Source of the DNA: Treponema sp.
GTDB lineage: Bacteria > Spirochaetota > Spirochaetia > Treponematales > Breznakiellaceae
Direction: 5' to 3'
NCBI GenBank assembly: GCA_009781915.1
Contig: WQUW01000001.1
Coordinates: 225 to 64,224, forward strand
DNA length: 64,000 nucleotides
Shown: in pieces, positions 17,210 to 32,679 of the stretch
How the letters are laid out: every line of letters begins with the position of its first letter
Numbering within the stretch: the stretch's first letter is position 1
The notes under the pieces: generated by a model
The model's input: the letters and a program-made list of their open reading frames with translations, nothing else
Told to the model about the DNA's origin: nothing
Databases searched by the model: none
Translations under genes and position numbers: made by a program

Positions 17210-17307
17210 ACAACTCTAATATAGTAAAAACCGGAAAAAAAAACAATTCGCCTCGTGTGAGTTGCCGCCCATATAGCACAAACCCCGCAAAAACAGTATC
17301 ATTCCCT

Positions 17308-17844
17308 ATGAATAAGGAAGCAGGCAAAGAAGCCTTCGCGCGGGCGCTACAGGGGCGCGCCTTTGAGTATGCGGTTATCCCGGCCGGGGACATAGTCTTT
17401 TCCCCCGAATTGCTGAAAGCCTGCGAGTCAAACGTGTGCGGGAACTACGGCAAATCATGGAGCTGCCCGCCTGCCATCCAGCCGTTGGAAAAACAAAAAG
17501 AGAACATCACCGCCTTCTCCTTCGCCCTTGTTTTTACCACAAAATTCGACCTTGAAGACTCCTTCGATTATGAGGGGATGGTGGAGGCAAAGAAACGCCA
17601 CAGCCGGCTTACCAGCGAAATGCACGAGCGGTTTGGCAAAACCAACCCTGTCTACGGAGCGGGGGCGTGCGCAATCTGTACCCCCTGCGCCTATCCCCAG
17701 CCCTGCAATTTCCCTGAGAAAACATACCTGCCCGTCGAGGCCGCCGGAATTAACGTAACGGAACTCAGCCGGGCCGCGGGAATACGCTACAACAATGGCC
17801 CCAATACCGTTACCTATTTTTCCATAATCCTTTTCAACCAATAA
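17308..17844 (+). CDS. DUF2284-type predicted metal-binding protein
   Basis: CESNVCGNYGKSWSCPP motif and C-terminal CAICTPCAYPQPC. I chose the ATG at 17308 over the upstream alternative start at 17257. Confidence 0.65.
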   Translation: MNKEAGKEAFARALQGRAFEYAVIPAGDIVFSPELLKACESNVCGNYGKSWSCPPAIQPLEKQKENITAFSFALVFTTKFDLEDSFDYEGMVEAKKRHSRLTSEMHERFGKTNPVYGAGACAICTPCAYPQPCNFPEKTYLPVEAAGINVTELSRAAGIRYNNGPNTVTYFSIILFNQ

Positions 17845-17947: not shown

Positions 17948-18592
17948 ATGGGCAATTTTGCGAATTCCTTTAACGAAATTTCGGAACTTCTGCAAAAGGG
18001 AAAGGCGAAGGACATTGTTGTTGCTGTCGAAAACGCCTTAAAAGAGGGCGCTGCCCCGGCGGATATTCTTGAAAAAGGTTTGATTTCCGGGATGAGCGTA
18101 ATCGGCGGGAAATTCAAAAATGGCGATGTTTTTGTTCCGGAAGTGCTGATAGCGGCGCGGGCAATGAACCACGCTTCCGCCACCCTTAAACCGGCCCTGA
18201 TGGAAGCCGGGGTAAAGCCTGTGGGCAAGGCCATCATCTGCACTGTGAAAGGCGACCTGCACGACATCGGAAAAAACCTTGTCAGGATGATGATAGAGGG
18301 CAAGGGTGTTGAAGTGCTCGACTTGGGAGTTGATTGCCCCAACGATAAAATTGTTGAGGCCGTGCGGGTGTCGGAAGCCAAGGTTGTGTGCCTGTCCGCC
18401 CTGCTTACCACTACCATGTTAAGCCAAAAGGAAGCGATTGACGCTCTGAAAACGGCGGGCCTTAGGGATAAGGTAAAGATAATGGTTGGCGGCGCGCCGA
18501 TAACCCAGAGCTTTGCCGATGAAATCGGCGCCGACGCCTATACTCCGGACGCTGCCTCGGCGGCGGAAGTGTGCCGGGCGTTTTACAACTAG
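17948..18592 (+). CDS. Corrinoid (cobalamin-binding) methyl-carrier protein, MtaC/MtbC-like
   Basis: N-terminal helical cap plus a Rossmann B12-binding domain with DxHxxG (GDLHDIG), SALLTTT and MVGGAP motifs; 214 aa. Confidence 0.9.
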   Translation: MGNFANSFNEISELLQKGKAKDIVVAVENALKEGAAPADILEKGLISGMSVIGGKFKNGDVFVPEVLIAARAMNHASATLKPALMEAGVKPVGKAIICTVKGDLHDIGKNLVRMMIEGKGVEVLDLGVDCPNDKIVEAVRVSEAKVVCLSALLTTTMLSQKEAIDALKTAGLRDKVKIMVGGAPITQSFADEIGADAYTPDAASAAEVCRAFYN

Positions 18593-20145
18593 GGTTTGTT
18601 CTGAACATACGCCTGCACAACAGTTCCGTTGTCTTACATACTGGCGCGGGGGAAACCATTTTGCTGGCCTGCGCGCGGGCCGGTGTTGTTCTGTCCGCGC
18701 CCTGCGGCGGGCGCCGCCGCTGCGGGAAATGCAGGGTGCGGCTTCTTGAAGGCCAGGTCAAAGGCGACACGCCGGACAGCGAAGGCTGGGTGCGGGCCTG
18801 CGTGGCGGTTGCGGTTTCGGACATCACTATCGCCATCCCCGCGAGCGAAGGAATAACCACAAGCGAAGTTACCGCCTGCGGGCGCTGTCCGGGTGTGCCT
18901 GCGGAAGGCCCTGATTCCCCGGCTGCCGTCCGCGCCGCATCAGTGGCTATTGACATCGGCACTACCACAGTCTCGGCCAGGCTTATTGATACCGCGTCTT
19001 CGCTGGTTTTGGATACAATCTCGGAATTAAATGACCAGCGGGCTTTCGGCGCTGATGTGATGAGCCGCATAGGGGCCGCGAAAAACGGCATGCTGCTTGA
19101 TCTTTTTACCGCCATTAACCGCCAGACAGAGCGGATTCTAACATCTTTTCTAACACGCTGGAATATTCCTCTGATCGAAAGGCTTGCCGTAAGCGGCAAT
19201 ACGGTAATGCTGCATCTTTTCCTTAACGTTGATCCGCGGGGCATGGGAGAATTGCCGTTTACCCCGGTATTCCTTGAAGAAAAAGAATTGCAGGGCCGCG
19301 ATCTTTCGCTTTCTGTGGAAACGGTAGTTGTGCTCCCCTCCATCGCGGCCTTTGTCGGGGGCGACATTACCGCAGGGCTTGCGGCGCTTGATATTCTTAA
19401 CAGCCCCGGCCCGTCCCTGCTAATCGACATAGGCACAAACGGCGAAATGGCCCTTTGCGATAACGGGACAATTCTTTGCTGCGCCACTGCCGCGGGCCCG
19501 GCTTTTGAGGGAGCGGAGATTTCCTGCGGGATGGGCGGAGTCAAAGGGGCAATCAGCGCCGTTGAGCTTGCGCCTTTAGGAGAGAGCGCTGTGTCGTTTA
19601 CCACTATCGGAAATGTCCCGCCTTTAGGCGTTTGCGGATCGGGACTTATTGACGCTGTGGCTGCCATGCTTAAACTTGGAATAATAGACGAAACAGGGCA
19701 TATGATGGACAGCGCCGGTTCGCGGGGCGGGTTTTACCTTGCGCCGGGTGTTTCAATCAGCGCGGGTGACATACGGCAATTCCAGCTTGCCAAAAGCGCC
19801 ATTCTTTCCGGCATCAAGATACTTTGCAAGAACGCAGGGGTTTTGCTTACGGAAATAAAAAATGTGTTTATTGCCGGGGGCTTTGGGTTTTTTATCAACA
19901 AGCAAAACGCGATAGATGCCGGAATCTTTCCGCCTGAGTTTGGCGCCGCGATTACCATTTGCGGAAATTTAAGCCTTCAAGGGGCCGAAGAATGTCTGGG
20001 CGCGAAGGAGTTCATGGACAAGTGCAAACAAGTAATTGACGTGTGCCGGGTTATCGATCTTGCCGCCGATCCGTCCTTTATGGACGAGTTCGCGGAGAAT
20101 ATGCTGTTTGATATCAGTCAGGAAGCAAAACACCATGCCGGTTAA
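18571..20145 (+). CDS. Reductive activator of corrinoid proteins (RACo/AcsV-like: 2Fe-2S ferredoxin plus ASKHA ATPase)
   Basis: N-terminal plant-type ferredoxin cysteines (APCGGRRRCGKCRV); ASKHA phosphate motifs (AIDIGTTTV, LLIDIGTNGEM). The GTG start at 18571 is uncertain and overlaps the corrinoid protein gene. Confidence 0.8.
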   Translation: MPGVLQLGFVLNIRLHNSSVVLHTGAGETILLACARAGVVLSAPCGGRRRCGKCRVRLLEGQVKGDTPDSEGWVRACVAVAVSDITIAIPASEGITTSEVTACGRCPGVPAEGPDSPAAVRAASVAIDIGTTTVSARLIDTASSLVLDTISELNDQRAFGADVMSRIGAAKNGMLLDLFTAINRQTERILTSFLTRWNIPLIERLAVSGNTVMLHLFLNVDPRGMGELPFTPVFLEEKELQGRDLSLSVETVVVLPSIAAFVGGDITAGLAALDILNSPGPSLLIDIGTNGEMALCDNGTILCCATAAGPAFEGAEISCGMGGVKGAISAVELAPLGESAVSFTTIGNVPPLGVCGSGLIDAVAAMLKLGIIDETGHMMDSAGSRGGFYLAPGVSISAGDIRQFQLAKSAILSGIKILCKNAGVLLTEIKNVFIAGGFGFFINKQNAIDAGIFPPEFGAAITICGNLSLQGAEECLGAKEFMDKCKQVIDVCRVIDLAADPSFMDEFAENMLFDISQEAKHHAG

Positions 20146-21427
20146 ACATGACCGCTGGTACTTGAAAGAGGTTCTCGATCTTGAACAGCTAAAAAAACTA
20201 TTCAAGCATTTTTCAATAATCACAAACATAGATGTAGCGCTCTTTGATTTTGCGGGCCGTGAAATCCTCGCTGTCAGAAAAGAAAATTCCGTTTGCCAGT
20301 TCGCGAAAAACGGGCCCAAATGCCGGGAGCATATTTCATCAGGAAGTTTGCGCGCCTCGGAGCTTGGCGAACCCTACATTTCCGCCTGCGGCTGCGGTCT
20401 TATTATGTGCTTTTCCCCCATTATGTACAAAGAACGGCTTATTGGTTCCATTGCCTGCGGGCCGACGGTGCTTTGGGATGCTGATGAAGTGGCGATGAAG
20501 GAATTCATGGAAAAAACCAAAGATATGGGCATTCATGTTGACATTGGCGAACTGTTTCATTCAATTACTTCGTGTACGTGTACAAACATGACCAGTTCCG
20601 CGCAGATTTTATTTATAATTGTTAACAGCCTGACCAAAGAGCACAGCGTATACCTCAATCAGAGGGCGCGCATTACCGAACAGCAGGCCAAGATCGCCGA
20701 ATTGATCATCGGCCAAAAGAACGCCGCCGGAACAAAACTAAAAAAGGAAATCCGTTCTACCGGCCCTGGTTATCCCATTGAAAGGGAAAAGGAACTTATT
20801 GTTTGCGTACAAAACGGAAATATAGAGCAATCGAAGAAAATATTAAATATTCTTTTAGGAGAGATTTTTTCTTTTGCCGACGGCAACCTTGACGCAATCA
20901 GAGTGCGCCTTTTTGAACTAAACGCCTTTTTCTCCCGTGCCGCGGTGGAAACAGGCGCGCCCATGTCCGACATAAATGAAATCGCCGTTAACTCGTTTAA
21001 TATTATCCATGATGATTTGGATTTTGGGCAGATTTGTTTCCTTGCCAGCCAGACGATGGAAGAATTTGTCCGCCTTATAGGCCGCAACCGCACCCAAAAA
21101 AAGATAAGCGAATATCTTTCCCGGGCTGTCGATTACATGGCGCTTAACTACACGGAAGAATTGACCCTTAGAAAGGTGGCTGACGCTGTTTTTATTAGCT
21201 CTTTTTATTTGAGCCACTTATTCCGCAAGGAGATGAACACCACTTTCTCGGATCATCTTTGTAAAATCCGCATAGATAATGCCAAGGCTTTTTTGAAAAA
21301 TGAAAGGAACCCAAGGATTCAGGAGATTGCGGAGAAAACCGGATTTAACGATCCCAATTATTTCGCTAAATCTTTTAAGAAGATGGTTGGTATAGCGCCC
21401 CGGGAGTACAAGAATTTTTTCAGGTGA
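20135..21427 (+). CDS. PocR sensory domain / AraC-family transcriptional regulator
   Basis: N-terminal PocR-like region (ITNIDVALFDFAGREI...CQFAKNGPKCREH...YISACGCGLIMCFSPI); C-terminal AraC HTH (FISSFYLSHLFRKEMNTTFSDHL...GFNDPNYFAKSFKKMVGIAPREY). The ATG at 20135 overlaps the RACo stop. Confidence 0.85.
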   Translation: MPVKHDRWYLKEVLDLEQLKKLFKHFSIITNIDVALFDFAGREILAVRKENSVCQFAKNGPKCREHISSGSLRASELGEPYISACGCGLIMCFSPIMYKERLIGSIACGPTVLWDADEVAMKEFMEKTKDMGIHVDIGELFHSITSCTCTNMTSSAQILFIIVNSLTKEHSVYLNQRARITEQQAKIAELIIGQKNAAGTKLKKEIRSTGPGYPIEREKELIVCVQNGNIEQSKKILNILLGEIFSFADGNLDAIRVRLFELNAFFSRAAVETGAPMSDINEIAVNSFNIIHDDLDFGQICFLASQTMEEFVRLIGRNRTQKKISEYLSRAVDYMALNYTEELTLRKVADAVFISSFYLSHLFRKEMNTTFSDHLCKIRIDNAKAFLKNERNPRIQEIAEKTGFNDPNYFAKSFKKMVGIAPREYKNFFR

Positions 21428-21450
21428 TTATTCAAACAAGATAGTACAGA

Positions 21451-21471
21451 TTTTGAGCAATATGATTAATG
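21451..21471 (+). promoter_or_regulatory. Conserved 21-nt motif TTTTGAGCAATATGATTAATG upstream of TRAP operon 1 (candidate operator or promoter element)
   Basis: A 20-of-21 identical copy (TTTTGAGCAATATAATTAATG) lies at 28507-28527, in the same orientation, upstream of TRAP operon 2. Confidence 0.5.
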
Positions 21472-21577
21472 ATTTCTTGATATTCTGTGTGACAAAGACC
21501 TGAATCGATGTTACTATAGAGGTACAAAAAATAATCGTAGCGGTTATTACATTTTTTCTTGTTATGGAGGGAAGACT

Positions 21578-22582
21578 ATGTTGGCAAGGTCAAAAATTGC
21601 AGGTAGCATTCTTGTAGTGCTGATTGCTAGTTTCATCACATCTTGCGCGAGGGACGACAGGATCATTATGAGGGTAGGTGATGTTTGGAGCGCAAGCCAC
21701 CCCAATTCCTACAGCATTATTAATGTTTTCAAACCTATGATTGAAGAAGGGACAAACGGTGCGATTTATGTAGAAATTTATGGTGCGGGAGCCCTTGGCA
21801 GCGAACAGACCTTATGGGACAGCGTACGCAGTGGCGCGTTAGAGGTTGGTATTTTGGGTACCTTGATAAGCAGCGAATACAGGCCCATGGTCATCGCTGA
21901 GTGGCCATTTTTGTACAGAGATGTGGAACACGCTAAAAGCGTATGGACTGGCAGCTTTGCCGAAGAGTTCATGAGTGATTTCAATTCCGCATTTTCTACT
22001 CAGATGAATCTTCTGGCAGTGGGCCCCAATAGCGCGCGTACATTTACTTCAAATGTTCCGCTCAGAAGTATACATGACTTCAGTGGGCAAAGGTTTCGTG
22101 TACCTGCGACGCAAGTACATGTGGGAATCGTTAACGACCTTGGCGCCAGTTCCCATATCATACCGCTTACAGACCTGTTTAGTTCAATGCAGACAGGAGT
22201 TGTTGATGGTCAGGATAATGGAATGGTTACCGTGTTAAGCGAGAGGTTTCACGAAGTGCAGAGGTATCTGCTTGAAACAAACCATCTTGTGGCAATAATG
22301 ACGACCGTTATAAATGCACCATTCTTAAACAGTCTGCGCCCGGAATATCAACAAGTTGTGCGGGATGCCGCAAGGGCAGCGGCAGTTTCTGCGTGGGAAG
22401 CCTATATCGTGTCCCTTGACAATGACCGTCAAACTCTCAGAAACTTGGGCGTTACCGTTACGCAGGTCTCTGATAGCGAAAGACTCCAATTCATTGAGGC
22501 CATTCAGCCGACCCTTTCTCATCTTCATGCAGAAAACCCCTGGGCACAGGAGGTTCTGACCAGAATAGGAAACGTGAGGTAA
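21578..22582 (+). CDS. TRAP transporter substrate-binding lipoprotein (DctP family), paralog 1
   Basis: Lipobox ITSC. DctP-type motifs (LGSEQTLWDSVRSGALE, GPNSARTFTS, RFRVPA, GVVDGQDNG). Confidence 0.88.
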   Translation: MLARSKIAGSILVVLIASFITSCARDDRIIMRVGDVWSASHPNSYSIINVFKPMIEEGTNGAIYVEIYGAGALGSEQTLWDSVRSGALEVGILGTLISSEYRPMVIAEWPFLYRDVEHAKSVWTGSFAEEFMSDFNSAFSTQMNLLAVGPNSARTFTSNVPLRSIHDFSGQRFRVPATQVHVGIVNDLGASSHIIPLTDLFSSMQTGVVDGQDNGMVTVLSERFHEVQRYLLETNHLVAIMTTVINAPFLNSLRPEYQQVVRDAARAAAVSAWEAYIVSLDNDRQTLRNLGVTVTQVSDSERLQFIEAIQPTLSHLHAENPWAQEVLTRIGNVR

Positions 22583-22653
22583 TGATACACTAGAGATACA
22601 AAAAATAACCGGTAGCGGTTGTTATATTTTTTCGTGTTTTATGGAGGAAGACT

Positions 22654-23655
22654 ATGTTGGCAAGATCAAAAATCGTAGGTAGCATTCTTGTAATGCTGAT
22701 TGCTGGTTTCGTCACGTCTTGCACGAGGGACGATAGAATCATCATAAGAGTGGGCGATGTTTGGAGCATAAGCCACCCAAATTCTTACAGTATTGCTAGT
22801 GTTTTCAAGTCCATGGTTGAAGACGGGACAAACGGCGCTATTTACGTTGAGGTTTATCACTCGGGCGCCCTTGGCAGTGAGCAGACCCTTTGGGACAGCG
22901 TACGCAGCGGTGTTGTGGAAATGGTTCTTGTAGGCAGTGTCCTGGCAACTGAATATCCGCCCCTTTTGATATCCGACTGGCCGTTTCTGTACAGGGATGT
23001 CGAACACGCCATGAAAGTGTGGACAGGCGAGTTTGCCGATGAGTTTAAAACGAACTTCAACGCTCATTTCCCCACAATGACTCTTTTGGCATTGGGCCCC
23101 AACAGCGCGCGTACGTTTACATCTCGTCTTCCACTCAGAAGTATGGATGATTTCGTCGGGCAAAGAATTCGTATGCCTGCAAATCCCATACACAATGGCA
23201 TAGTCAACGATCTTGGCGCCAGCTCTCAGGTAATACCGCTTACGGATCTGTTTACCTCCCTACAGACCGGAGTTGCTGACGGTCAAGACAATGGAATGGT
23301 TACCGTGCTGAGCGAAAGGTTTAATGAAGTGCAAAGCTATTTATTTGAAACAAATCATATGATAGCGATAATGCCGACTGTTATAAATACGCAATTTCTA
23401 AACAGTTTAAGTCAGGAGCATCAGCAAATTATCCGGAATGCGGCAAGGGCGGCATCTATATCAGCATGGGAAAATTATCTTCTTTCTCTCGATTCTGATC
23501 GTGAGAGGCTTAGAGAACTTGGCGTTACTGTAACCCAGCTCGATGAAGCTGAAAGAGAAAGAATAATTCAGGCGATTCAGCCGACTCTTGCCATGCTCCA
23601 CGAGCAAAATCCTTGGGCACAGGAAGCCATTGAGAGAGTGGGAAATATAAGATGA
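22654..23655 (+). CDS. TRAP transporter substrate-binding lipoprotein (DctP family), paralog 2 (tandem duplicate)
   Basis: About 80% identical to paralog 1 over the first 60 aa (hand count). The duplicated 5' leader includes the RBS. Confidence 0.88.
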   Translation: MLARSKIVGSILVMLIAGFVTSCTRDDRIIIRVGDVWSISHPNSYSIASVFKSMVEDGTNGAIYVEVYHSGALGSEQTLWDSVRSGVVEMVLVGSVLATEYPPLLISDWPFLYRDVEHAMKVWTGEFADEFKTNFNAHFPTMTLLALGPNSARTFTSRLPLRSMDDFVGQRIRMPANPIHNGIVNDLGASSQVIPLTDLFTSLQTGVADGQDNGMVTVLSERFNEVQSYLFETNHMIAIMPTVINTQFLNSLSQEHQQIIRNAARAASISAWENYLLSLDSDRERLRELGVTVTQLDEAERERIIQAIQPTLAMLHEQNPWAQEAIERVGNIR

Positions 23656-24164
23656 TGAATACACTCATTGCCCGGCTGTTCCGAGTAATTGAGATAATGA
23701 TAGCCGTGTTCCTCGGACTGATGATTCTGCTTGTGTTTATGAACGTGGTAGCGCGTTACGTGTTCAATATCGGCTTTGTGTGGTCTGAGGAAATAGCGCG
23801 GCTTTGTTTTATATTTCTTGTATATTTGGGCTCTATAGAAGCCATGCGGGATAATCGCCACCTTATGGTTGATACAGTACTGCTCAAACTTCCCAAGGTG
23901 TTGCGGGTCGGTGTCTATGCTCTTACTCAGGTGGGCATTATATGGGTGATGTCTGTGCTTCTCCGCGGTGCATGGAGGGTTGTGCTTATGACTAGGCACA
24001 ATGTATGGGTTGCCACCGGTTTCCCTGCGCATTTCGTACATTTCTTTGGCTGCATACTTGCCGCTTCCATCATGCTTATAGGGGTGATGAATCTTGTCCG
24101 CCTTTTTGTATTCAAAATGCCGGTGGAAGAATTAATTCGGATGCGGGGCGGCTCTGGCTCGTAA
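23652..24164 (+). CDS. TRAP transporter small permease (DctQ family)
   Basis: 170 aa with four predicted TM helices and the N.V.RY.F.....W.EE..R pattern (NVVARYVFNIGFVWSEEIARL). The start overlaps the upstream stop. Confidence 0.85.
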   Translation: MMNTLIARLFRVIEIMIAVFLGLMILLVFMNVVARYVFNIGFVWSEEIARLCFIFLVYLGSIEAMRDNRHLMVDTVLLKLPKVLRVGVYALTQVGIIWVMSVLLRGAWRVVLMTRHNVWVATGFPAHFVHFFGCILAASIMLIGVMNLVRLFVFKMPVEELIRMRGGSGS

Positions 24165-24203
24165 TGGCGGCGGTGAGAAAGCGCTGCTGGAAAGGGAACG
24201 TTA

Positions 24204-25550
24204 ATGATAGAGATTTTAGCGACCATTTATTTGGGCTCGATGATCGTTGCGATAATTCTGGGTATGCCCATTGCGTTTGCGATCCTTATTTCCGCTGTCT
24301 TTACCGGGCTTTTCATGGGTGGTGGACCGGCGAACCCTCAGGTAATAGCCCTTCAGCTTATGCAGGGCTCTGACAGCGTTGTGCTTATGGCAGTGCCGTT
24401 TTTTGTGCTTGCTGGCGAATTTATGAATCGTGGCGGCCTTACCAAACGCATCATCGCCTTTAGTGAAATTTTCGTAGGGAACATTAGAGGCGGGCATGGC
24501 TACATTGTAATTTTGGCCTGTCTGTTTTTTTCGAGCCTTGTTGGTTCGGCAGTGGCGAGTACGGCGGCGTTGGGGGGAATACTTATCCCAATGATGGCTA
24601 AAGCGGGGTATAGCCGCGCAAAGGCCGCAGGGCTCGTGGCCGGTTCGAATTTGGTATCGCCTATCATGCCGCCTTCCGTACCCATGATTATTTACGCAGT
24701 TGTAGCTGGTCAATCTATTCATTATCTTTTTTTAGGCGGAATAGCTCCGGCCCTTTACCTTACACTCTTTATGGGTATTGCATGGTTTTTTGTTTCCCGC
24801 AATGATGCTATACGCACAAACAGAAAACGTCCTACGGCAAAAGAGGCATTCAAGAGTTTTTTGGGCGGATTTTGGGCCCTGCTTTTGCCGGTTATTATTC
24901 TTGTTGGTTTGCGGGGAGGTATTTTTACTGCTACCGAAGCGGGTGTAATAGCCGTAGTATACGCAATAATCGTAGGGGCTGTTGTTTACCGGGAACTTAA
25001 ACCCGCTGATTTCTTTAAAGCATTTATTTCCGGCGCAAAGATGTCGGCGGTAGTTATGTTCCTTACTGCGACTGCGCTGGTTTCAGCATTTTACCTTACT
25101 ATTTCGCGTATTCCTATTGGAATTATAGACGCTCTCGCTCCGCTGGTTGACAATCCAATGTTGCTGCATCTGCTTCTGCAAATAATCATTATTGTTTTGG
25201 GGCTTGTTATGGATGTCGTGCCGACAATATTGATCATGACTCCTATCATGCTGCCTTTAGTAGTTGCTGCCGGTATTGATCTTGTGTATTTCGGCATTGT
25301 TTTTACGCTTGCTAACGTAACTGGCCTAATTACACCGCCAGTTGGGCCGGTGCTGAACGTGGCGTGCGCGACTGGAAATGTAAAGATGGAAGATGTTATT
25401 CCAACAGCCTTACCCTATTTCTTTTTCCAGTGTGTTTTGGTGATTGTTTTTGTTCTGTTCCCCGAAACCATCACGGCACCGCTTAGATTGATAGCAGGCT
25501 ACAATGCGTTACCCATGCAGAACATTATTCAAGTGCTATTCAGTAACTAA
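24204..25550 (+). CDS. TRAP transporter large permease (DctM family)
   Basis: 448-aa polytopic membrane protein. Motifs such as AVPFFVLAGEFMNRGGLTKR and VGSAVASTAALGGILIPMM are typical of DctM. Confidence 0.9.
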   Translation: MIEILATIYLGSMIVAIILGMPIAFAILISAVFTGLFMGGGPANPQVIALQLMQGSDSVVLMAVPFFVLAGEFMNRGGLTKRIIAFSEIFVGNIRGGHGYIVILACLFFSSLVGSAVASTAALGGILIPMMAKAGYSRAKAAGLVAGSNLVSPIMPPSVPMIIYAVVAGQSIHYLFLGGIAPALYLTLFMGIAWFFVSRNDAIRTNRKRPTAKEAFKSFLGGFWALLLPVIILVGLRGGIFTATEAGVIAVVYAIIVGAVVYRELKPADFFKAFISGAKMSAVVMFLTATALVSAFYLTISRIPIGIIDALAPLVDNPMLLHLLLQIIIIVLGLVMDVVPTILIMTPIMLPLVVAAGIDLVYFGIVFTLANVTGLITPPVGPVLNVACATGNVKMEDVIPTALPYFFFQCVLVIVFVLFPETITAPLRLIAGYNALPMQNIIQVLFSN

Positions 25551-25551
25551 A

Positions 25552-25596
25552 ACCGCCCTACCGGCATTTCTGCTGGCAGGGCGGTCTGTTTTTTTA
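25552..25596 (+). terminator. Intrinsic terminator after TRAP operon 1 (also at the 3' end of the convergent URO-D-like gene)
   Basis: Hairpin 25552-25564 / 25573-25585 (8 bp, one mismatch, then 4 bp including a GU pair; 8-nt loop), followed by a T7 run at 25589-25595. Confidence 0.7.
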
Positions 25597-26865
25597 TGCT
25601 CCAGCTCTGCTGTTAAATTCCTTAACAGCATTCACCATAGCAATAAAATTTTCCAGTGGTGTTTTTGCCTGCGCATTGTGGATCGTGTTGAAGACGAAAC
25701 CGCCAGCGGGGGAGAAAATGCGGCAACGTTCTAGAACTTCCTGGCGGACTTCTTCCGGCGTACCGAAAGGCAGGGTTTTCTGCGTGTCGACACCGCCGCC
25801 CCAAAAGGCAAGGCGGCTACCGTAAGTCTTTTTAAGATGTGCAGGATCCATATTTGCGGCGGAACACTGTACAGGGTTCAGGATATCAATTCCAGCATCT
25901 GCCATGGGGCCGATAAGAGGTTCAATTGAACCGCAACAATGTTTGAACACTTTCCACGGCGTGTTGTTGTGAATCCAGTCGCACATGCGGTTGTGGTATG
26001 GGTAGAAAACTTCTTTGTATGTGTCTACGGAAAAGAACGTGTTCAACTGGGTTCCATAATCGCCGGTACACAGCATAATAAGATCAATATCACCGCCTGC
26101 TACTTTGTAAACTTTCTCCAGGTTTTTTACCGCAATAATTGACTGTATGTCAAACACACTTTGAACAAATTCCGGATACGCTACAAATGCCATGTACCAG
26201 TCAGCCAGGCGACGCATACCCAGAGGTTTCTTGTGACCAATGCCATAGAAGCCGGAAGGTGAACTCAGAGAGCCGCCGGGAAGGGTAAACATTACAGCTC
26301 TGCCCGTAGCCCTTGCGGCTTTCGCGTTTTCGGCAATTTTCTTTACTGTTTCGTCTGACAATTCGGAAAAATCCGCCGCATTATCTTTTGGGTCTGGATT
26401 ATCTTCGTCGTATGGCTGCTGACGCTCAATGACATCGAAGAAATAGCCGTTGGAAGGCATTTTTGCGCTTGGTGGAACGGCCCTGTCACCTTGGGGGTAG
26501 GCAACATAACCGCCATCTTCCACTTGATCCAATTCCATCGTTTTTGGGATAAGAATCTTCTGGCCCCAATGTGTCTGCCATTCTTTCCATTCATCAAGGC
26601 GGTTCCCGAAGATGGAGGAAACCGGCATGACCATTGCGGTATCAATATCCATTGCGTCCATAAGATCTTCTTCTATCCATCCAAGCATCTGGAAAGGGTC
26701 AAAAGCTTTTACGGGACGCTTTTCAAGTCCGTAATAGTCTCGAAGCTGTTCCACAACACTGCAATGAATGCCGGTACACTGTGCGCTACCAAAGTCAAGG
26801 GGAATGCGATCGGGCTGCCGGTGATTCACCGCATCCAGAACTCTTTTTCTTCTTTCATCTGCCAT
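25594..26865 (-). CDS. Uroporphyrinogen decarboxylase (URO-D) family protein, MtaA/methyltransferase-like, long form (paralog 1)
   Basis: 423 aa from ATG 26865, with an AGGAG RBS. The URO-D-like C-terminal half has FKHCCGSIEPLI, DILNPVQ and FWGGGVDTQ. It is paralogous to the 31465-32679 protein. Confidence 0.75.
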   Translation of the reverse strand: MADERRKRVLDAVNHRQPDRIPLDFGSAQCTGIHCSVVEQLRDYYGLEKRPVKAFDPFQMLGWIEEDLMDAMDIDTAMVMPVSSIFGNRLDEWKEWQTHWGQKILIPKTMELDQVEDGGYVAYPQGDRAVPPSAKMPSNGYFFDVIERQQPYDEDNPDPKDNAADFSELSDETVKKIAENAKAARATGRAVMFTLPGGSLSSPSGFYGIGHKKPLGMRRLADWYMAFVAYPEFVQSVFDIQSIIAVKNLEKVYKVAGGDIDLIMLCTGDYGTQLNTFFSVDTYKEVFYPYHNRMCDWIHNNTPWKVFKHCCGSIEPLIGPMADAGIDILNPVQCSAANMDPAHLKKTYGSRLAFWGGGVDTQKTLPFGTPEEVRQEVLERCRIFSPAGGFVFNTIHNAQAKTPLENFIAMVNAVKEFNSRAGA

Positions 26866-26974
26866 GTTAATCTCCTGAATACTATTTTTTCGCCGAAGCG
26901 CCTTCTTCTGCAAATTATACAGCATATCCAATAAAAACGATGGTCATGGAAAATGGTATTTACAATTCCAAATT

Positions 26975-28354
26975 CTACATATCGTATTTTTTGGGATCCA
27001 GTTTATCACACTCGCCGATAATATTTTCGGTAAACTCGCCTACATCGGCGGGCAATTCTTCCACAGTGTTGGCAATATTTTCAAGCCACATTAACTCTTT
27101 ATCGTCCAGCGCAAGGCTTCCCTGATCATGCGCTTTCTGGATATGAGACAACGCAAGCGCCGCCGCTTTTTTTGCCCTGGGGTAATACCCGTCAATCTTT
27201 ACAAGCTCTTTTGAAATATCAAGTGCGATATCGGGACGCAAAACATACGCCTGCGGGTCAAGTTTTGAGTCGCTGTCTGCGTGTAAATCACGAAGCAGTA
27301 GAGCAGTTTGCTGTCCCCTTGCGGACGCTTCATTCATTAGGCGGCAGTCATACACGAGCTGTTCAAATGACACGGTAGGAGCCATGCCGCCCAGCAGCTT
27401 AATGTTCTGGATGGATTCGTTGCTCCAAATATCGGCCACGCACGCGGCGATATTTCCGACCGGAGAAAGATGGGCGCACGCGGCTGTCCCGCCTTCCATA
27501 GAGATGGGCGTACCTGTAATGGCTTTTATGTAGACCCCCTCGTAGCCGCAATCCTTGTGCGGGCCTTTCGCGCCGCACTCAATAGCCACAAGGCTTCTGA
27601 CAGCCGTAACCACCCTGACCGCCGCCGCGAACACACGTGGAATGTAGTTCCTGTCAGCAAGCACCATTGCGGTATTGCCAAAACCGCAAGCGGTATCTCC
27701 CGCGGCGATTGTTCCCGTCCTTGCGGCGATGGCGGCAATTTCAGTCCAAAGTTTATTCATGTCGGCACATCCAAGAACCGACAGGGCGAATATAGATTTG
27801 GCAATGTCGCAATACATTATGGCATCATCGTGGACTTCCTTGCCGCCCACTGACTCCACCGCGAGAAAATCGGCCCCGGCTTTGGCGCAGCCTTCGAAAG
27901 TTTTTAGCATGGCATCCCAATGCCAGCCGCGCCACATGTGCTCAAGGCCGCTGCCTTCGCGTATGTCGTTAGGCGTAATCCTGACAGCTCCCTTTATGCC
28001 GTGCTTTACTTCATATTCTTTGACTATGCCCACAACTGTTTTGCATACTTCAATGCCCCATTCGGGATTTTCGGTCATTGGCGGCAGGGTTTCAATTTCC
28101 GCCACAAAGCCCGGAACATACAGTTCCTTCGCCCTCTCGCAAATGCCGGTAATAATTTCCGTATAATTGCGGATTACATCCGGCATGGTGTCCTTTGTAA
28201 TCTGCATGGTTGGAAGCGTAAAGTTTACCTCAGGGTAAACCGTACCGCCGCCGATAACCATTCCGTTGGTCAGAGCCACAGGGTACTTGGCCCTGCCAAA
28301 AACAAAGGCGTTAATGTCTGTATAAACCGTTTCGTTAAATTGTTTTTTTTGCAT
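26975..28354 (-). CDS. mtaB: MtaB-family methyltransferase (homolog of methanol:corrinoid methyltransferase)
   Basis: 460 aa from ATG 28354, with an AAGGAAG RBS. Long collinear similarity to Methanosarcina MtaB as I recall it: ESVGGKE, GTIAAGDTACGFGNTAM, GPHKDCGYEGVYIKAITGTPISMEGGTAACAH, DPQAYVLRPD. Confidence 0.8.
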   Translation of the reverse strand: MQKKQFNETVYTDINAFVFGRAKYPVALTNGMVIGGGTVYPEVNFTLPTMQITKDTMPDVIRNYTEIITGICERAKELYVPGFVAEIETLPPMTENPEWGIEVCKTVVGIVKEYEVKHGIKGAVRITPNDIREGSGLEHMWRGWHWDAMLKTFEGCAKAGADFLAVESVGGKEVHDDAIMYCDIAKSIFALSVLGCADMNKLWTEIAAIAARTGTIAAGDTACGFGNTAMVLADRNYIPRVFAAAVRVVTAVRSLVAIECGAKGPHKDCGYEGVYIKAITGTPISMEGGTAACAHLSPVGNIAACVADIWSNESIQNIKLLGGMAPTVSFEQLVYDCRLMNEASARGQQTALLLRDLHADSDSKLDPQAYVLRPDIALDISKELVKIDGYYPRAKKAAALALSHIQKAHDQGSLALDDKELMWLENIANTVEELPADVGEFTENIIGECDKLDPKKYDM

Positions 28355-28506
28355 GGCGGCTTCCTTTTCTGATGTAAATATATAGATATGGTAGTCACAG
28401 CGCGACGGAAGTTTCATTAATGAATTTGCTGATTTAAGGTAATCTTTTGCTATTTCGTTTGCCTTGACTAATTGGCTTTTGGTGGTATATCGCAAAGCAT
28501 TACTTG

Positions 28507-28527
28507 TTTTGAGCAATATAATTAATG
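28507..28527 (+). promoter_or_regulatory. Second copy of the conserved 21-nt motif, in the divergent mtaB-like / TRAP operon 2 intergenic region
   Basis: TTTTGAGCAATATAATTAATG is 20-of-21 identical to 21451-21471. It lies about 74 nt upstream of the dctP-like ATG at 28601. Confidence 0.5.
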
Positions 28528-28600
28528 TTTTTCCTTATTAACCTGTCAAAATGGGGAAGATGCGCAAAGAGCATGATATTTAATTTCAAGGAGATGACGA

Positions 28601-29599
28601 ATGAAGATTACATGGAAAAACATAGCGATTATACTTATTGTCTTTAGTGCTTTTCTGTTTGGTTCGTGCAGAAGATCGGCTTCTGATGGGCCTATTGTTT
28701 TAAGAGTTGCCAGCGCCGCGCAAATCGGAGACAGCCTGGATCAAGCTTTGAATTTTTTTGTACAGGAACTTAGCGCTAGAACTGATGGCGCGATTACCGG
28801 AGAGGTTTTTTCCGCGTCGCAGCTCGGGCATCACAGCGACTACATTGCCGGATTGCAGATGGGCAGTATCCACGTAGCGGAAATTACAGCCGCGGTGCTT
28901 TCGACAGTAGCGCCCAGGTTTGCCATTTTTGACCTGCCGTATATTTCCGAATCGCCCCAGGCTCTTTTTGACATCCTTGACGGAGAAGCAGGCGATATTC
29001 TTACCCGGCACATTATGGACGTGGCTCAAATTCGCCCAATCGGCTGGATGGTACGTACTCCCCGGCACGTGTACAGCAGCGCAGGCCCCATTCGCACCGT
29101 GGAAGATTTTCGCAACCTGAGGATTCGCACCATGCAAAGTGCCCCCATGATCAGGGGCATGGAACTCCTTGGAGCATTTCCAAGCGCCATCCCTACCGCT
29201 GAACGTTATACGGCTTTGCAAACCGGCGTGGTGGATGCTGCCGAAAATAATGTTGCCGAGATATGGAATACCAATGAATGGGAGGTAACCAGGTATCTTT
29301 CCAAAACAGCCCACTTGGTAGCGCCTAATGTAATATCAATCGGAACAAGATTTTTGGAAAGCCTTTCGGAAGAACACCAAAGGATCATAATTGAGGTTGG
29401 CAGAGAAGCAGGTATGCTTGCGACCCGGTTGGAGATAGAGGGAGAGCGGCCATTCGAAGAATTGCTTGCCACCCAGGGGGAAATGATTATCAACGAAATT
29501 GAAGATATGAGTAGCTTTGTAACAGCTCTCGCTCCGCTTCACCATGAATGGGCACCTGTTATCGGCGCTGATCTTATCGCTCTGTTCAGGGGTGAGTGA
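28601..29599 (+). CDS. TRAP transporter substrate-binding lipoprotein (DctP family), system 2
   Basis: Lipobox LFGSC. DctP-type motifs (RIRTMQSAP, TGVVDAAENN). Confidence 0.85.
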   Translation: MKITWKNIAIILIVFSAFLFGSCRRSASDGPIVLRVASAAQIGDSLDQALNFFVQELSARTDGAITGEVFSASQLGHHSDYIAGLQMGSIHVAEITAAVLSTVAPRFAIFDLPYISESPQALFDILDGEAGDILTRHIMDVAQIRPIGWMVRTPRHVYSSAGPIRTVEDFRNLRIRTMQSAPMIRGMELLGAFPSAIPTAERYTALQTGVVDAAENNVAEIWNTNEWEVTRYLSKTAHLVAPNVISIGTRFLESLSEEHQRIIIEVGREAGMLATRLEIEGERPFEELLATQGEMIINEIEDMSSFVTALAPLHHEWAPVIGADLIALFRGE

Positions 29600-29609
29600 A
29601 AATTCTGTC

Positions 29610-30131
29610 ATGGAAAAGTTTACTCATATTGTTTTTGATGTGATACTTGGCCTGTTTATAAAAATAATCGGCATAGCCATGGTTCTTTCGGTTTTGTTGC
29701 AAATCGCTTCCCGGAACCTGAACATTGCTGGCATACTCTGGACTGAGGAGATGGGGCGATTGACCTTCATTTGGTTTTGCTTCCTTGCCACGGCGGCCGC
29801 CTTTGAAAAGGGAAAACATGTCTCGATCGATTATTTTTACATGAAAATGAATAAACTTTTCCGGACAATCTGCGATTATCTTGGCCTTGCCTTGATCCTT
29901 ATGTTTACGATGATAATAGTTGTCGAAGGGATACGAATACTGGAGTTTGTTTCCATTCAACATTCCCCGGTTATGCGGCTTTCGTTTTTCTGGTTTTATC
30001 TGTCGGTACCTGTCGGAATGGGGTTTATTTTGCTTTTCGCGATACTGTCTTTTGTAAAGTTGATATTAACGACCAAAAACGGCGGCTCAATACCTGCAAG
30101 TGGGGATAATCCTTCTTCGGTGGACGGGTAG
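29610..30131 (+). CDS. TRAP transporter small permease (DctQ family), system 2
   Basis: I chose the ATG at 29610 (MEKFTHIVFDVILG...). Four TM helices; WTEEMGRLTFIWFCFL motif. Confidence 0.8.
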   Translation: MEKFTHIVFDVILGLFIKIIGIAMVLSVLLQIASRNLNIAGILWTEEMGRLTFIWFCFLATAAAFEKGKHVSIDYFYMKMNKLFRTICDYLGLALILMFTMIIVVEGIRILEFVSIQHSPVMRLSFFWFYLSVPVGMGFILLFAILSFVKLILTTKNGGSIPASGDNPSSVDG

Positions 30132-30140
30132 GGGAACACT

Positions 30141-31439
30141 ATGACTGAAAATATACTGCTTCTTGTCGGTGTTGTTTTTCTTTTGCTTGTTGCGCTAATG
30201 CTTATTAAAGTACCAATCTCTTTTGCTTTGGGAATTGCCACTTTGGGAGGGGTTTGGCTCGTGGGGGATTTGCCCATTATGGTGCTGGCCCAACGGATGT
30301 TTGTCGGGCTTGATTCGTATACCCTGCTGGCGATACCGCTTTTTATGCTTACCGGGCAGATCATGGCTATGGGCGGCGTAACCAGGGACTTACTAAATCT
30401 TTCCATGGTGTTTGTAGGATGGTTGCGCGGCGGACTTGCCTACGTGAATATTGTGTCAAGCATGATATTCGCCGCGTGTAATGGCGTGGCCTCAGCTGAT
30501 ACAGCGTCACTTGGCTCTGTGCTTATTCCGGCAATGGTCAAGAAAGGATACGAGAAGGACTTTACTGTAGCGGTTACCGCAACGTCATCCCCCCTTGGCA
30601 TAATATTCCCCCCAAGTGTTCCCATGGTACTTTACGCAGTCGCTTCAGGTACATCAATAGGAAGGCTTTTTCTTGGTGGAATTATTCCCGGTTTCTTGTC
30701 AGGTTTCGCGTTACTTGCAGTAGCTGGGGCAATTGCCAGAAAGCGTAATTATCCGGCAGAAGAGCGCATCACGTTCAAAGAAAGCGTCAGGATAGCGGTT
30801 CGCTGTATTCCCGCCCTTTTTACCGTGGTAATTATTGTTGGCGGTATATTTTCGGGATTTTTTACGCCTACTGAAGCTGCCGGTGTGGCATGTCTTTGGG
30901 CTACGTTATTGGGATTTTTCTATTACAAAGAACTTAAAATAAAGAAAATGCCAGAACTGATACACCGGACTGCTTTGACTGTAGGGCTCGTGGCGCTTAT
31001 GATTTCCGCCGCAAGCGCTTTGGGCTGGTTTCTTACGAGCCAGGGCGTTGCCCGGGCCATTGCTGATGGATTATTGGCGGTTACTGACAACAAGATAATT
31101 ATCTTGTTGCTCATCAACTTGGTGCTGTTATTTGTTGGCCTCTGGATGGATCTTGCCCCGGCAATGACCCTTTTTACGCCCATATTGTTGCCAATTGCAA
31201 TTGCGTTTGGCGTGGATCCGGTTCATTTTGGAATTATTATGGTTGTAAACATGGCCATCGGGCTTTTTACGCCGCCGGTGGGAGTATGCCTTGTTATTGC
31301 TTGTGGTATCGCTGGAGCGCCCATAACCAGCGTCCTTAAGGCTTTTGTTCCGTTCTTCCTTGTAATGATTGTAATTCTTCTTTTTATCACGTTTGTTCCG
31401 CAAATAAGCCTTTTTTTGCCGAACTTGCTGATGAACTAA
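30141..31439 (+). CDS. TRAP transporter large permease (DctM family), system 2
   Basis: 432-aa polytopic protein with AIPLFMLTGQIMAMGGVTRD and GVASADTASLGSVLIPAM motifs. Confidence 0.9.
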   Translation: MTENILLLVGVVFLLLVALMLIKVPISFALGIATLGGVWLVGDLPIMVLAQRMFVGLDSYTLLAIPLFMLTGQIMAMGGVTRDLLNLSMVFVGWLRGGLAYVNIVSSMIFAACNGVASADTASLGSVLIPAMVKKGYEKDFTVAVTATSSPLGIIFPPSVPMVLYAVASGTSIGRLFLGGIIPGFLSGFALLAVAGAIARKRNYPAEERITFKESVRIAVRCIPALFTVVIIVGGIFSGFFTPTEAAGVACLWATLLGFFYYKELKIKKMPELIHRTALTVGLVALMISAASALGWFLTSQGVARAIADGLLAVTDNKIIILLLINLVLLFVGLWMDLAPAMTLFTPILLPIAIAFGVDPVHFGIIMVVNMAIGLFTPPVGVCLVIACGIAGAPITSVLKAFVPFFLVMIVILLFITFVPQISLFLPNLLMN

Positions 31440-31464
31440 TGTACGCAAAGGAGCAGGTTCTTAT

Positions 31465-32679
31465 ATGGCTGAAACACCACGCGAGCGGGTACTAAAGACA
31501 ATAAACCACGTAGAGCCGGAGGTTCCCGCTATTGATTTCGGCTCTACTACTTCCAGCGGAATAAGTATTTTTGAATACATTGATCTGAAGGAATATCTTG
31601 GCATAAACCAGACTGAGCTTCCTGTTTTGTTTGATATATTTTTAATGCTCGCCGACCCATGCGCGTCGATGATTGAGCGTTTTGGTGGAGATATTATCCA
31701 GTTAAAACGACTTGCCCCAAACTTCGGGATTAAACTTTGCGATTGGAAACAATGGACTTTGCATAATGGTAAAACCGTGCTGGTTCCCGGCGGCTTTAAC
31801 CCCAAGCCTGATGCCGAAGGCGGCCTTGTTATTGAAAACGCGCAAGGCATTGCCGTAGCGCGTATGCCCAGTAAGGGATATTATTTTGATTTGATTCATT
31901 TTCCCTATAAAAACATTGAAGAAGCCGATGAAATTGATAAACTTGAGTTATGTGGTGTTTTGGATGAGGAAATCAACTATCTGTCCAAAGAAGGTAAACG
32001 GCTTTTTGAGGAAACCGATAAAGCGGTAGTGTTTTCATTCGGCGGGCGGCTTGTCGAAGCCGGGTTATTTGGATGGGGCTTTGAGGAATTTCTTGTTAAC
32101 TTGCTTGCAAATCCTGATATGATACACCGGTATTTTGAAAGACTTACGGATATATACATCAATGACATTGATCGTATATTACAGCAATGCAACAATTATA
32201 TTGATATATTCCGGTTTGTTGATGATCTTGGAACTCAAAATTCCCTGTTAATGTCTCCCGCTGTTTACCGGGAAATGGTTAAACCCTATCATAAAAAAAT
32301 GTTTCAGTTTATCAAGAAAAAATATCCAAAGCAGAAAATAGCGACCCATTGCTGCGGCGCTATATACCCGGTGATTCCCGATCTTATTGATGCCGGGATA
32401 GACATTATTAACCCTGTGCAGATTTCTGCCAGCGGTATGGATCCGCTGCAGCTTAAAAAGGAATTTGGGAAAGATATTGTGTTTTGGGGCGGGGCGGCAA
32501 ACATGCAAGCTACCGTGCCTTACGGAACACTTGACGAGATCAAAAAAGAAACCGGAACCCTTACAGAAATATTTATGAAAGATGGAGGGTTCATATTTAA
32601 TCCTGTCCATAATATCCAGGCAAACATCGCCCCGGAGAAAATAGCCGCGATTTATGACGTAGCGCTGAGGTATCGCTAG
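31465..32679 (+). CDS. URO-D family protein, MtaA/methyltransferase-like, long form (paralog 2)
   Basis: 404 aa with an AAAGGAG RBS. The N-terminus RERVLKTINHVEPEVPAIDFGS parallels RKRVLDAVNHRQPDRIPLDFGS of paralog 1. It also has ATHCCGAIYPVI, DIINPVQ and FWGGAANMQ. Confidence 0.75.
   Translation: MAETPRERVLKTINHVEPEVPAIDFGSTTSSGISIFEYIDLKEYLGINQTELPVLFDIFLMLADPCASMIERFGGDIIQLKRLAPNFGIKLCDWKQWTLHNGKTVLVPGGFNPKPDAEGGLVIENAQGIAVARMPSKGYYFDLIHFPYKNIEEADEIDKLELCGVLDEEINYLSKEGKRLFEETDKAVVFSFGGRLVEAGLFGWGFEEFLVNLLANPDMIHRYFERLTDIYINDIDRILQQCNNYIDIFRFVDDLGTQNSLLMSPAVYREMVKPYHKKMFQFIKKKYPKQKIATHCCGAIYPVIPDLIDAGIDIINPVQISASGMDPLQLKKEFGKDIVFWGGAANMQATVPYGTLDEIKKETGTLTEIFMKDGGFIFNPVHNIQANIAPEKIAAIYDVALRYR

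Follow-up and report, generated by a model that had tools for sequence, protein, structure and literature searches.

Organization of the mtaB island

We analyzed a 64,000-nt stretch of the genome of a Treponema sp. (contig WQUW01000001.1 of assembly GCA_009781915.1, positions 225 to 64,224; hereafter the window) and, within it, an island of genes around mtaB, which encodes a zinc methanol:corrinoid methyltransferase. Judging by two congeners from termite guts (Treponema sp. WRMC01 and WRKT01), the host is a termite-gut treponeme whose genome comprises 2.82 Mb in 180 contigs and is 97.1% complete; the window lies on contig 1. Coordinates are those of the window unless a locus or contig is named.

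The 459-aa mtaB gene (26975-28354, minus strand) has its start codon, ATG, at 28354, preceded by a GAAAAGGAAG ribosome site. A preliminary description of the locus had the gene right but gave its length as 460 aa, a count that includes the stop codon. Downstream on the same strand lies UROD1 (25594-26865), the 423-aa gene reported earlier as resembling uroporphyrinogen decarboxylase (URO-D), which does match PF01208 and which we annotate as a long URO-D/MtaA-like putative zinc corrinoid methyltransferase. The gap between the two genes is about 110 nt, and a consensus scan of it revealed no terminator-like site on the minus strand; judged from the sequence, co-transcription of mtaB and UROD1 is plausible. 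On its other side, mtaB shares a divergent promoter region of 246 nt (28355-28600) with a TRAP (tripartite ATP-independent periplasmic) binding-protein gene starting at 28601, as had been described. This gene, dctP3, opens TRAP system 2 (dctP3, dctQ2 and dctM2, matching Pfam DctP, DctQ and DctM; 28601-31439, plus strand), and the last gene of the operon is a second long URO-D/MtaA-like gene, UROD2 (31465-32679, plus strand; 404 aa). TRAP system 1, likewise assigned from Pfam families (a dctP1-dctP2 tandem pair, dctQ1 and dctM1; 21578-25550, plus strand), is convergent with UROD1.

The remaining island genes are all on the plus strand. The corrinoid protein (17948-18592; MtaC/MtgC-like, with Pfam B12-binding_2 and B12-binding domains) is 73-78% identical to those of Treponema MtaB loci, and its gene lies 8.4 kb from mtaB on the opposite strand. 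It is the single match to B12-binding_2 (PF02607) in the entire host genome, which upholds the earlier remark that mtaB has no adjoining mtaC and that the only corrinoid protein is about 8 kb away. Next to it are a RACo-type reductive activator of corrinoid protein (18571-20145; Pfam Fer2, Raco_middle and RACo_C_ter) and a PocR-sensor/AraC-type regulator (20036-21427, the start being either 20036 or 20135; Pfam PocR and HTH_18/AraC) that is 53-61% identical to regulators adjoining mtaB in other termite treponemes. Upstream of the corrinoid protein lies a gene for a DUF2284 predicted metal-binding protein (17257-17844; PF10050, 143.8 bits), a family that recurs beside the corrinoid protein and RACo in six related loci (L045, L047, L023, L057, L061 and L069). 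All island genes are intact. The GC content of the genes from 20135 to 32679 is 43-51%, compared to 53-58% in the flanking genes. No cobalamin riboswitch was found within the window.

An MtaB of a bacterial lineage

The window protein matches the Pfam MtaB family (PF12176) over residues 4-457 of 459 with 563.8 bits (cut-off 25), and phmmer aligns it to Methanosarcina barkeri MtaB (PDB 2i2x_A) with an E value of 8.6e-90, in agreement with its earlier description as collinear with methanogen MtaB. It scores below the cut-off of the methanogen-type equivalog NF040651 of NCBIfam (408.5 bits versus 720), and the protein is of a bacterial lineage. The zinc ligands of MtaB are one Glu and two Cys (PMC6257451). 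The motifs VESVGGKE, GDTACGFGNTAM and GPHKDCGYEG are all kept, and an alignment run as a check on the reported ligands places E167, C223 and C269 of the window protein opposite the E, C and C of VES, GDTDC and KDCGYE in 2i2x_A (E164, C220 and C269, as counted from the alignment).

We assessed conservation in an alignment of 97 MtaBs. Besides the window protein, it holds 78 sequences taken from related loci and 18 that each stand for a cluster at 50% identity, among them sequences of Eubacterium maltosivorans, Methanobrevibacter, Methanosphaera, Methanomethylophilus and Hodarchaeota. The MtaB of locus L023 was left out, as the wrong frame had been picked and its branch in the tree measured 9.25. 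The Glu/Cys/Cys ligand columns are at least 95% conserved among the 97 sequences. Set against the other 96, the window protein keeps the family residue in all 73 columns conserved at 95% or more, and at the columns at least 90% conserved within its own clade it has a single conservative change, I166V. The suggestion that this MtaB acts on something other than methanol therefore finds no backing here: the conservation data give no sign of a changed substrate, and by its sequence the protein is an ordinary family member, predicted to use zinc in the interconversion of methanol and methyl-Co(III) on the corrinoid protein. It is the sole MtaB of the host genome.

Three proteins among the relatives depart from the usual architecture. 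P0273 (1238 aa) has its MtaB domain at residues 796-1215, and P0241 and P0391 (422-431 aa, Treponema sp.) combine the C-terminal two-thirds of MtaB with about 110 further residues; a Treponema protein of the latter kind, containing part of MtaB, is named 'cobalamin-dependent protein'. All three may be fusions or mis-calls.

Phylogeny and neighborhoods of MtaB

Of 8,000 candidates scored in a protein search, 6,009 were relatives of MtaB. The top 120 share 74-86% identity with the window protein and belong to Oscillospiraceae, Defluviitaleaceae, Christensenellales and Treponema metagenome-assembled genomes (MAGs). In a maximum-likelihood tree, the window MtaB is sister to an Oscillospiraceae MtaB (locus L034; support of 96 in the approximate likelihood-ratio test, SH-aLRT) whose gene is part of a canonical mtaB-mtaC pair. 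The window protein itself belongs to a termite Firmicutes subclade, and the remaining Treponema MtaBs occupy three other positions in the tree. This placement, together with the drop in GC content, indicates that mtaB was transferred from an uncultured gut or digester lineage of Firmicutes into a termite-gut Treponema. The 79-row clade holding the window protein is sister to Eubacterium MtaB, and the nearest named acetogen sequence, that of Eubacterium maltosivorans, is 50% identical, a value that is unremarkable because acetogen MtaBs share only 56-57% among themselves (PMC13391211). At 60% identity and above, the clade consists of MAGs only, with no cultured or assayed member.

To describe gene neighborhoods, we surveyed 80 related MtaB loci with flanks of up to 10 kb. 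A corrinoid-protein gene directly follows mtaB in 39 of them, and a PocR/AraC regulator, RACo or DUF2284 is nearby in many. TRAP genes occur near mtaB in three loci only (L044, L075 and L085), where they are weakly similar and scattered on the tree. We therefore rejected a separate TRAP-associated MtaB clade, which the preliminary description had envisaged: TRAP adjacency is sporadic, not monophyletic, and the sister sequence belongs to a plain mtaB-mtaC pair. Four other treponeme loci (L045 and L047-L049) share a layout of DUF2284, corrinoid protein, RACo, PocR regulator and mtaB; the window looks like this layout with TRAP and URO-D modules inserted and a Firmicutes-type mtaB.

In the 50 MtaB-clade genomes behind loci L006-L085, acetyl-CoA synthase (ACS) was detected in 4, methylenetetrahydrofolate reductase (MTHFR) in 33, the homocysteine-binding S-methyl_trans domain in 48 and URO-D-family methyltransferases in 42. 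By this count the clade is found nearly always outside acetogens.

Two further arrangements were seen. In Treponema sp. WRKT01, of the same genus as the host, a co-directional row (L032:4934-13429) begins with mtaB, a corrinoid protein and a long URO-D-like gene, and continues with a GH94-like phosphorylase, an MFS_2 glycoside transporter and a second URO-D-like gene; the first URO-D-like protein is 44% identical to UROD1. This is another treponeme with MtaB wired to sugar uptake. Separately, a CobW/COG0523-type GTPase (a putative zinc chaperone) directly follows mtaB in several relatives from Firmicutes (L046:11429-12358, L062:11504-12439 and L079:5894-6841); no homologue was found in the host genome.

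A shared operator-like element

The 25-nt repeat noted earlier proved real: the copy at 21451-21475, on the plus strand 5′ of TRAP operon 1, and the copy at 28507-28531 are identical at 23 of 25 positions, and the core at TRAP operon 1, GAGCAATATGATTAATG, is an exact match to the pattern. From the repeat we defined a 17-nt element, [G/C]AGCAA-N5-TTAATG, which stands 60 nt before mtaB, 73 nt before TRAP operon 2 and 106 nt before TRAP operon 1. Its sites are at 21455-21471 and, as two copies in the divergent promoter region, at 28511-28527 toward dctP3 and 28431-28415 (minus strand) toward mtaB; a fourth is inside dctP2. With up to one mismatch allowed, these four matches in the window compare to 0.4 expected, and none of 100 shuffles reached four. 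Across 1.6 Mb of related loci the element matches three times (L045:5324, L045:9901 and L047:13606, all treponeme loci), each time before mtaB or a corrinoid-protein gene. The regulators of L045 and L047 are 53-57% identical to that of the window.

The element is thus a candidate operator to which the PocR/AraC protein may bind. Since it precedes mtaB and both TRAP operons, the mtaB-UROD1, TRAP-1 and TRAP-2-UROD2 units look like one regulon, presumably under the neighboring regulator. The transporter-linked context of this MtaB that was pointed out earlier accordingly stands, in that the shared element ties mtaB to the TRAP operons; the substrate change that had been read into it does not.

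TRAP systems and their likely ligands

Both TRAP systems are complete (PF03480, PF04290 and PF06808). The dctP1/dctP2 tandem pair (21578-23655) encodes proteins that are 70% identical, has duplicated leaders and serves one dctQM unit. Among solved binding proteins, those nearest to DctP3 are 4x8r and 4n8y, which bind glucuronate and galacturonate, respectively (PMC11668362), and that nearest to both DctP1 and DctP2 is 4pbq, which binds L-gulonate (PMC5788505). The host genome also encodes the glucuronate isomerase UxaC, beside another TRAP dctP-dctM pair (contig C19:8265-12607), and at least eight DctM paralogues, making it rich in organic-acid importers.

Given the nearest solved binders, the sugar-catabolic operon context described below and the presence of UxaC, the imported compounds are most likely sugar acids. 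Aromatic methoxy acids (vanillate and syringate, as used by acetogen O-demethylases) were also considered as ligands and ranked lower, because the nearest solved DctP proteins bind uronates or aldonates and because TRAP-UROD operons lie among sugar-catabolic genes. As far as gene context can tell, the TRAP link belongs to UROD1 and UROD2 and not to MtaB.

Long URO-D-like proteins

UROD1 and UROD2, which are 32-33% identical to each other, match PF01208 with 64 and 73 bits, respectively, in the C-terminal half only. An AlphaFold2 model of UROD1 (pLDDT, a per-residue confidence score, of 90) was searched with Foldseek against a PDB copy that ends in April 2026 and may be missing CdmB, published in May 2026. 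The top match was MtaA (4ay7; E 3.6e-11, TM-score 0.67 normalized to target length), followed by UroD structures and, more distantly, MetE. Sequence searches of the PDB (a copy without dates) with UROD1, UROD2 and a family profile yielded no significant match: UROD1 alone had no match at E values up to 0.01, and the best scores of the profile were 0.069 for UroD and 0.14 for MtaA.

H309, C311 and H396 are invariant in 25 diverse members of the long family. In a profile alignment, H309-x-C311 lies opposite LHICG of MtaA and H396 opposite the Cys of PGCG, so that the UROD proteins have a His where MtaA has its second zinc-motif Cys; we take these LHICG and PGCG residues to be the zinc ligands of MtaA. 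The two proteins score 47.8 and 47.1 bits against the MtaA/CmuA subfamily model TIGR01463, well under its cut-off of 235. By sequence they form a separate long-form clade, and the fold match of UROD1 and the invariant residues make them look like corrinoid methyltransferases. We found no study of the long family in the literature.

The family is large, with 7,967 relatives among 8,000 scored candidates, including proteins more than 50% identical in Planctomycetota, Acidobacteriota and Bacillota. A metagenome scan for UROD1 gave 14 loci. Orthologues that are 69-83% identical, on three termite metagenome contigs (L086-L088), adjoin other TRAP systems; the neighbors on L086 are a ribulose-phosphate epimerase, an aldolase and an aldo-keto reductase. 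No MtaB match was seen on these contigs, which are short (L086 has 272 nt upstream). UROD2 has an 80% identical counterpart in a complete 4.06-Mb genome of the same family as the host (G381), which has ACS; its operon (L140) also encodes dctP (64%), dctQ, dctM (75%), a sugar isomerase-like gene, a split transketolase and a dehydrogenase, with a divergent GntR regulator alongside.

In L032, L090 and L091, genes of this family have a corrinoid protein, RACo or both as neighbors, associations that point to corrinoid chemistry: RACo, a corrinoid protein, a URO-D-like protein 47% identical to UROD1 and a sodium:solute symporter occur together in L090, and a URO-D-like gene and a corrinoid-protein gene are adjacent in L091. 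L090 also encodes a 771-aa protein (L090:1-2315, minus strand) with a borderline match (24.8 bits) to GH67_N, an alpha-glucuronidase family domain. The protein has no sequence relative in the PDB, and we treat the match as a hint.

Long URO-D genes are present in 30 of 401 sampled Spirochaetota genomes. One family (f21; genomes G047-G211, loci L131-L139, L143-L144 and L149 examined) has them in all 17 of its genomes, a single one of which can hold as many as 81 first-look candidates; 14 of the 17 have ACS and none has MtaB. In this family the genes adjoin sugar ABC transporters, PfkB kinases, a DegT aminotransferase, Fe-ADH and a sulfatase, and the three genomes checked contain 12-19 corrinoid proteins each. 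Several corrinoid-protein matches on contigs C13, C162 and C40 of G211 contain a single in-frame TAG; these could be pseudogenes, sequencing errors or read-through. Overall, ACS occurs in 19 of 29 genomes positive for long URO-D genes, compared to roughly 60 strong matches in the whole 401-genome sample, a comparison that is not an independent statistic because the genomes are interrelated. MtaB occurs in none of the 29, most of which have ACS. The many paralogues near varied sugar transporters in these methyl-consuming organisms fit donor enzymes (MT-I) better than acceptor enzymes.

Methyl-group enzymes of the host

The host genome contains two URO-D family genes, both in the island. A search of this 97.1%-complete genome for known methyl acceptors did not find ACS (PF03598), MTHFR (PF02219), MtrH (PF02007), MetE, the S-methyl_trans homocysteine-binding domain of MetH, or MttB. 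The sole Pterin_bind (PF00809) protein, on contig C55, was considered as a candidate acceptor-side methyltransferase (MT2) and rejected, as it is dihydropteroate synthase (TIGR01496, 284.8 bits). Formyltetrahydrofolate synthetase (FTHFS) is present. A metA-metY operon for homocysteine lies on contig C61 (C61:6644-8954, locus L151); MetA is a homoserine O-acyltransferase (424 bits) and MetY an O-acylhomoserine sulfhydrylase (459 bits).

With one corrinoid protein and one RACo activase in the genome, MtaB, UROD1 and UROD2 must all use the same pair. A corrinoid protein needs both loading and unloading, and no known acceptor was found, so one of the three island enzymes must unload it.

Discussion

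We consider it probable that the island holds a genuine MtaB, of Firmicutes origin and with its substrate unchanged, whose link to TRAP transport runs through UROD1 and UROD2, and that these genes form one regulon sharing a corrinoid protein and RACo. As to what the genes do, we suggest tentatively that the URO-D-like enzymes demethylate imported methylated sugar acids and that MtaB releases the methyl group as methanol. This organization and this mechanism together make the best overall explanation, one to which we give nearly, but not quite, an even chance.

According to this proposal, the TRAP systems would import methylated sugar acids, the obvious candidate being 4-O-methylglucuronate from wood xylan. 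UROD1 and UROD2 would move the methyl group onto Co(I) of the corrinoid protein, and the demethylated sugar acid would then be fermented. MtaB would unload methyl-Co(III) onto water to give methanol, an outlet that suggests itself because no folate, coenzyme M, ACS or MetH/MetE acceptor was found in the genome, and RACo would re-reduce corrinoid that had become oxidized. The net reaction would be hydrolysis of a methyl ether through a corrinoid shuttle. The MtaB reaction is near thermoneutral and reversible, and micromolar methanol would pull it backwards. Loading by the URO-D-like enzymes is also favored by the high-capacity importers within the same putative regulon. More broadly, MtaB seems to appear where another methyl outlet is lacking, since ACS is found in only 4 of 50 MtaB-clade genomes and MtaB in none of the 29 spirochaetes with long URO-D genes. 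That non-acetogenic termite-gut treponemes run a corrinoid-shuttle 'methyl-ether hydrolase', in which URO-D-like enzymes load and a reversed MtaB yields methanol, is a bolder claim and a rather unlikely one.

Several observations weigh against the proposal. We know of no demonstration that net methanol formation by MtaB is physiological, and both the way in which MtaB runs and the compounds handled by the URO-D-like and TRAP proteins are inferred. The sugar-acid binders are no more than distant relatives of the DctP proteins (E about 1e-35). Long URO-D genes in another spirochaete family have no adjoining corrinoid-protein gene, and the relatives in Acidobacteriota and Planctomycetota may leave room for a function other than methyl transfer. 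The host keeps metA-metY without a known methionine synthase, in a genome that is 97% complete with 3% unassembled. Lastly, two of the four closest MtaB relatives (L062 and L006) adjoin a metY-type O-acetylhomoserine sulfhydrylase gene, with a cysteine synthase also in L062.

The last points lead to the strongest alternative and a close rival, a methanol-dependent route to methionine, which we judge somewhat less likely than methanol release. Here MtaB would load the corrinoid protein from methanol, and a URO-D-like enzyme, resembling MtaA or core-MetE, would unload it to homocysteine; in a variant, the methyl group would pass to sulfide and the resulting methanethiol would be condensed by MetY with O-acylhomoserine. 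Such a route would replace the missing MetE/MetH, with the TRAP and URO-D modules bringing in additional methyl donors. It would account for the metA-metY operon on C61 in a genome where MetE, S-methyl_trans and MTHFR were not found, and for the sulfhydrylase genes beside the close MtaB relatives. The order mtaB, corrinoid protein, URO-D-like gene in L032 places the last where an MT2 would be expected, and UROD1 has a fold like MtaA and, more distantly, MetE, with H-x-C kept. The clade genomes can be read in the same direction, in that 48 of 50 have a homocysteine-binding domain and 17 of 50 lack MTHFR. Core-MetE uses methylcobalamin (PMC7005905), and a corrinoid hub that joins demethylation to methionine synthesis exists in Ruegeria (PMC12478193). 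Against this route, the cost of two high-capacity uptake systems and their three binding proteins is large when set against the little methyl that methionine requires. The dozens of long URO-D paralogues near sugar transporters in ACS-positive spirochaetes fit the donor side, and the close UROD1 orthologues on L086-L088 are TRAP-linked with no MtaB match in the available sequence. Moreover, the 48 clade genomes with the homocysteine-binding domain have it as classical S-methyl_trans, whereas none was found in the host.

It is considerably less probable that the island is an uncoupled mosaic in which the URO-D-like proteins are non-corrinoid zinc enzymes of sugar-acid catabolism, next to which gene transfer has placed a relict or incomplete methanol module made up of MtaB, the corrinoid protein and RACo. 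The block of lower GC content, the Firmicutes origin of MtaB and the failure to find an MT2 in the host genome would suit such a history, as would the long URO-D genes that lie apart from corrinoid genes in other spirochaetes and the occurrence of the family in aerobes. But the genes are all intact, the operator-like element is common to mtaB and both TRAP operons, three loci (L032, L090 and L091) do place long URO-D genes next to a corrinoid protein, RACo or both, and genomes with the family tend to have ACS and many corrinoid proteins. Least probable is the original idea of an MtaB retuned to demethylate a TRAP-imported methoxy acid instead of free methanol, for although mtaB has in common with a TRAP operon a divergent promoter that bears the operator-like element, lacks an adjoining mtaC and belongs to a clade without an assayed member, the protein departs from relatives in plain mtaB-mtaC pairs by one conservative change and from the family columns by none, its TRAP adjacency is sporadic and not monophyletic, and the island already holds two dedicated candidate substrate methyltransferases.

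The proposed demethylation system has parts in common with several known ones. Like Methanosarcina MtaABC (MtaB/MtaC 2I2X; MtaA 4AY7), the island joins a zinc MtaB and a corrinoid protein to putative zinc methyltransferases of the URO-D fold, but its corrinoid gene is not adjacent to mtaB, TRAP importers belong to the putative regulon, and its URO-D-like proteins exceed MtaA in length by about 80 residues and share just 14-15% identity with it in a fold alignment. A bacterial host is also not expected to use coenzyme M. With the MtaB/MtaC/MtaA systems of the acetogens Acetobacterium woodii, Eubacterium callanderi, E. limosum and Moorella thermoacetica, it shares a bacterial MtaB, a corrinoid protein and a RACo-type activase; there, however, a 30-kDa folate methyltransferase (MtaA) passes the methyl group into the Wood-Ljungdahl pathway, and in the host no such protein, MTHFR or ACS was found.

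OdmB, VdmB, MtvB, MtoB and CdmB are MT-I enzymes of the URO-D superfamily; the corrinoid protein that they load is maintained in its active state by an ATP-dependent activase (PMC10418091, PMC13222342). Their role, substrate-specific corrinoid loading, is the one we assign to UROD1 and UROD2. These known enzymes take methyl groups from aromatic methyl ethers or haloalkanes to folate, whereas UROD1 and UROD2 are found in sugar and sugar-acid contexts and no folate step was found. The type 1 mlp clusters of Kountz and Balskus likewise combine an MtaA-like URO-D protein, a corrinoid protein and an activase in non-methanogenic anaerobes, have no folate methyltransferase and are suspected of using a thiol-type acceptor; they contain several MtaA-like proteins, and the part of the report consulted makes no mention of MtaB or TRAP genes (PMC10418091). 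In Ruegeria pomeroyi, MtgBCD uses one corrinoid protein for glycine betaine demethylation and methionine formation, a precedent for the methionine alternative, but it involves other methyltransferase families in an aerobic host, with no MtaB reported in the abstract (PMC12478193).

Our literature search found no paper linking corrinoid enzymes with methylated sugars, or MtaB with treponemes as methanol users, and the only carbohydrate demethylase it found is an oxygen-dependent P450 (PMC6292453). If the proposal is right, the island would encode the first anaerobic carbohydrate O-demethylase and would reveal a new physiological role for MtaB; demethylation of sugar acids by the URO-D-like enzymes would explain what becomes of 4-O-methylglucuronate, a missing piece in the anaerobic breakdown of hemicellulose, and the methanol formed would be a source for the methyl-reducing methanogens of the gut. 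Should the methyl group end up in methionine instead, the island would amount to a methionine synthase of a new type. MtaB usually marks methanol-consuming methanogens and acetogens, but here it belongs to a large uncultured clade in which ACS was not found in 46 of 50 genomes, and its presence in a nearly complete host genome in which no known methyl acceptor was found raises the question of what MtaB does in fermenters.

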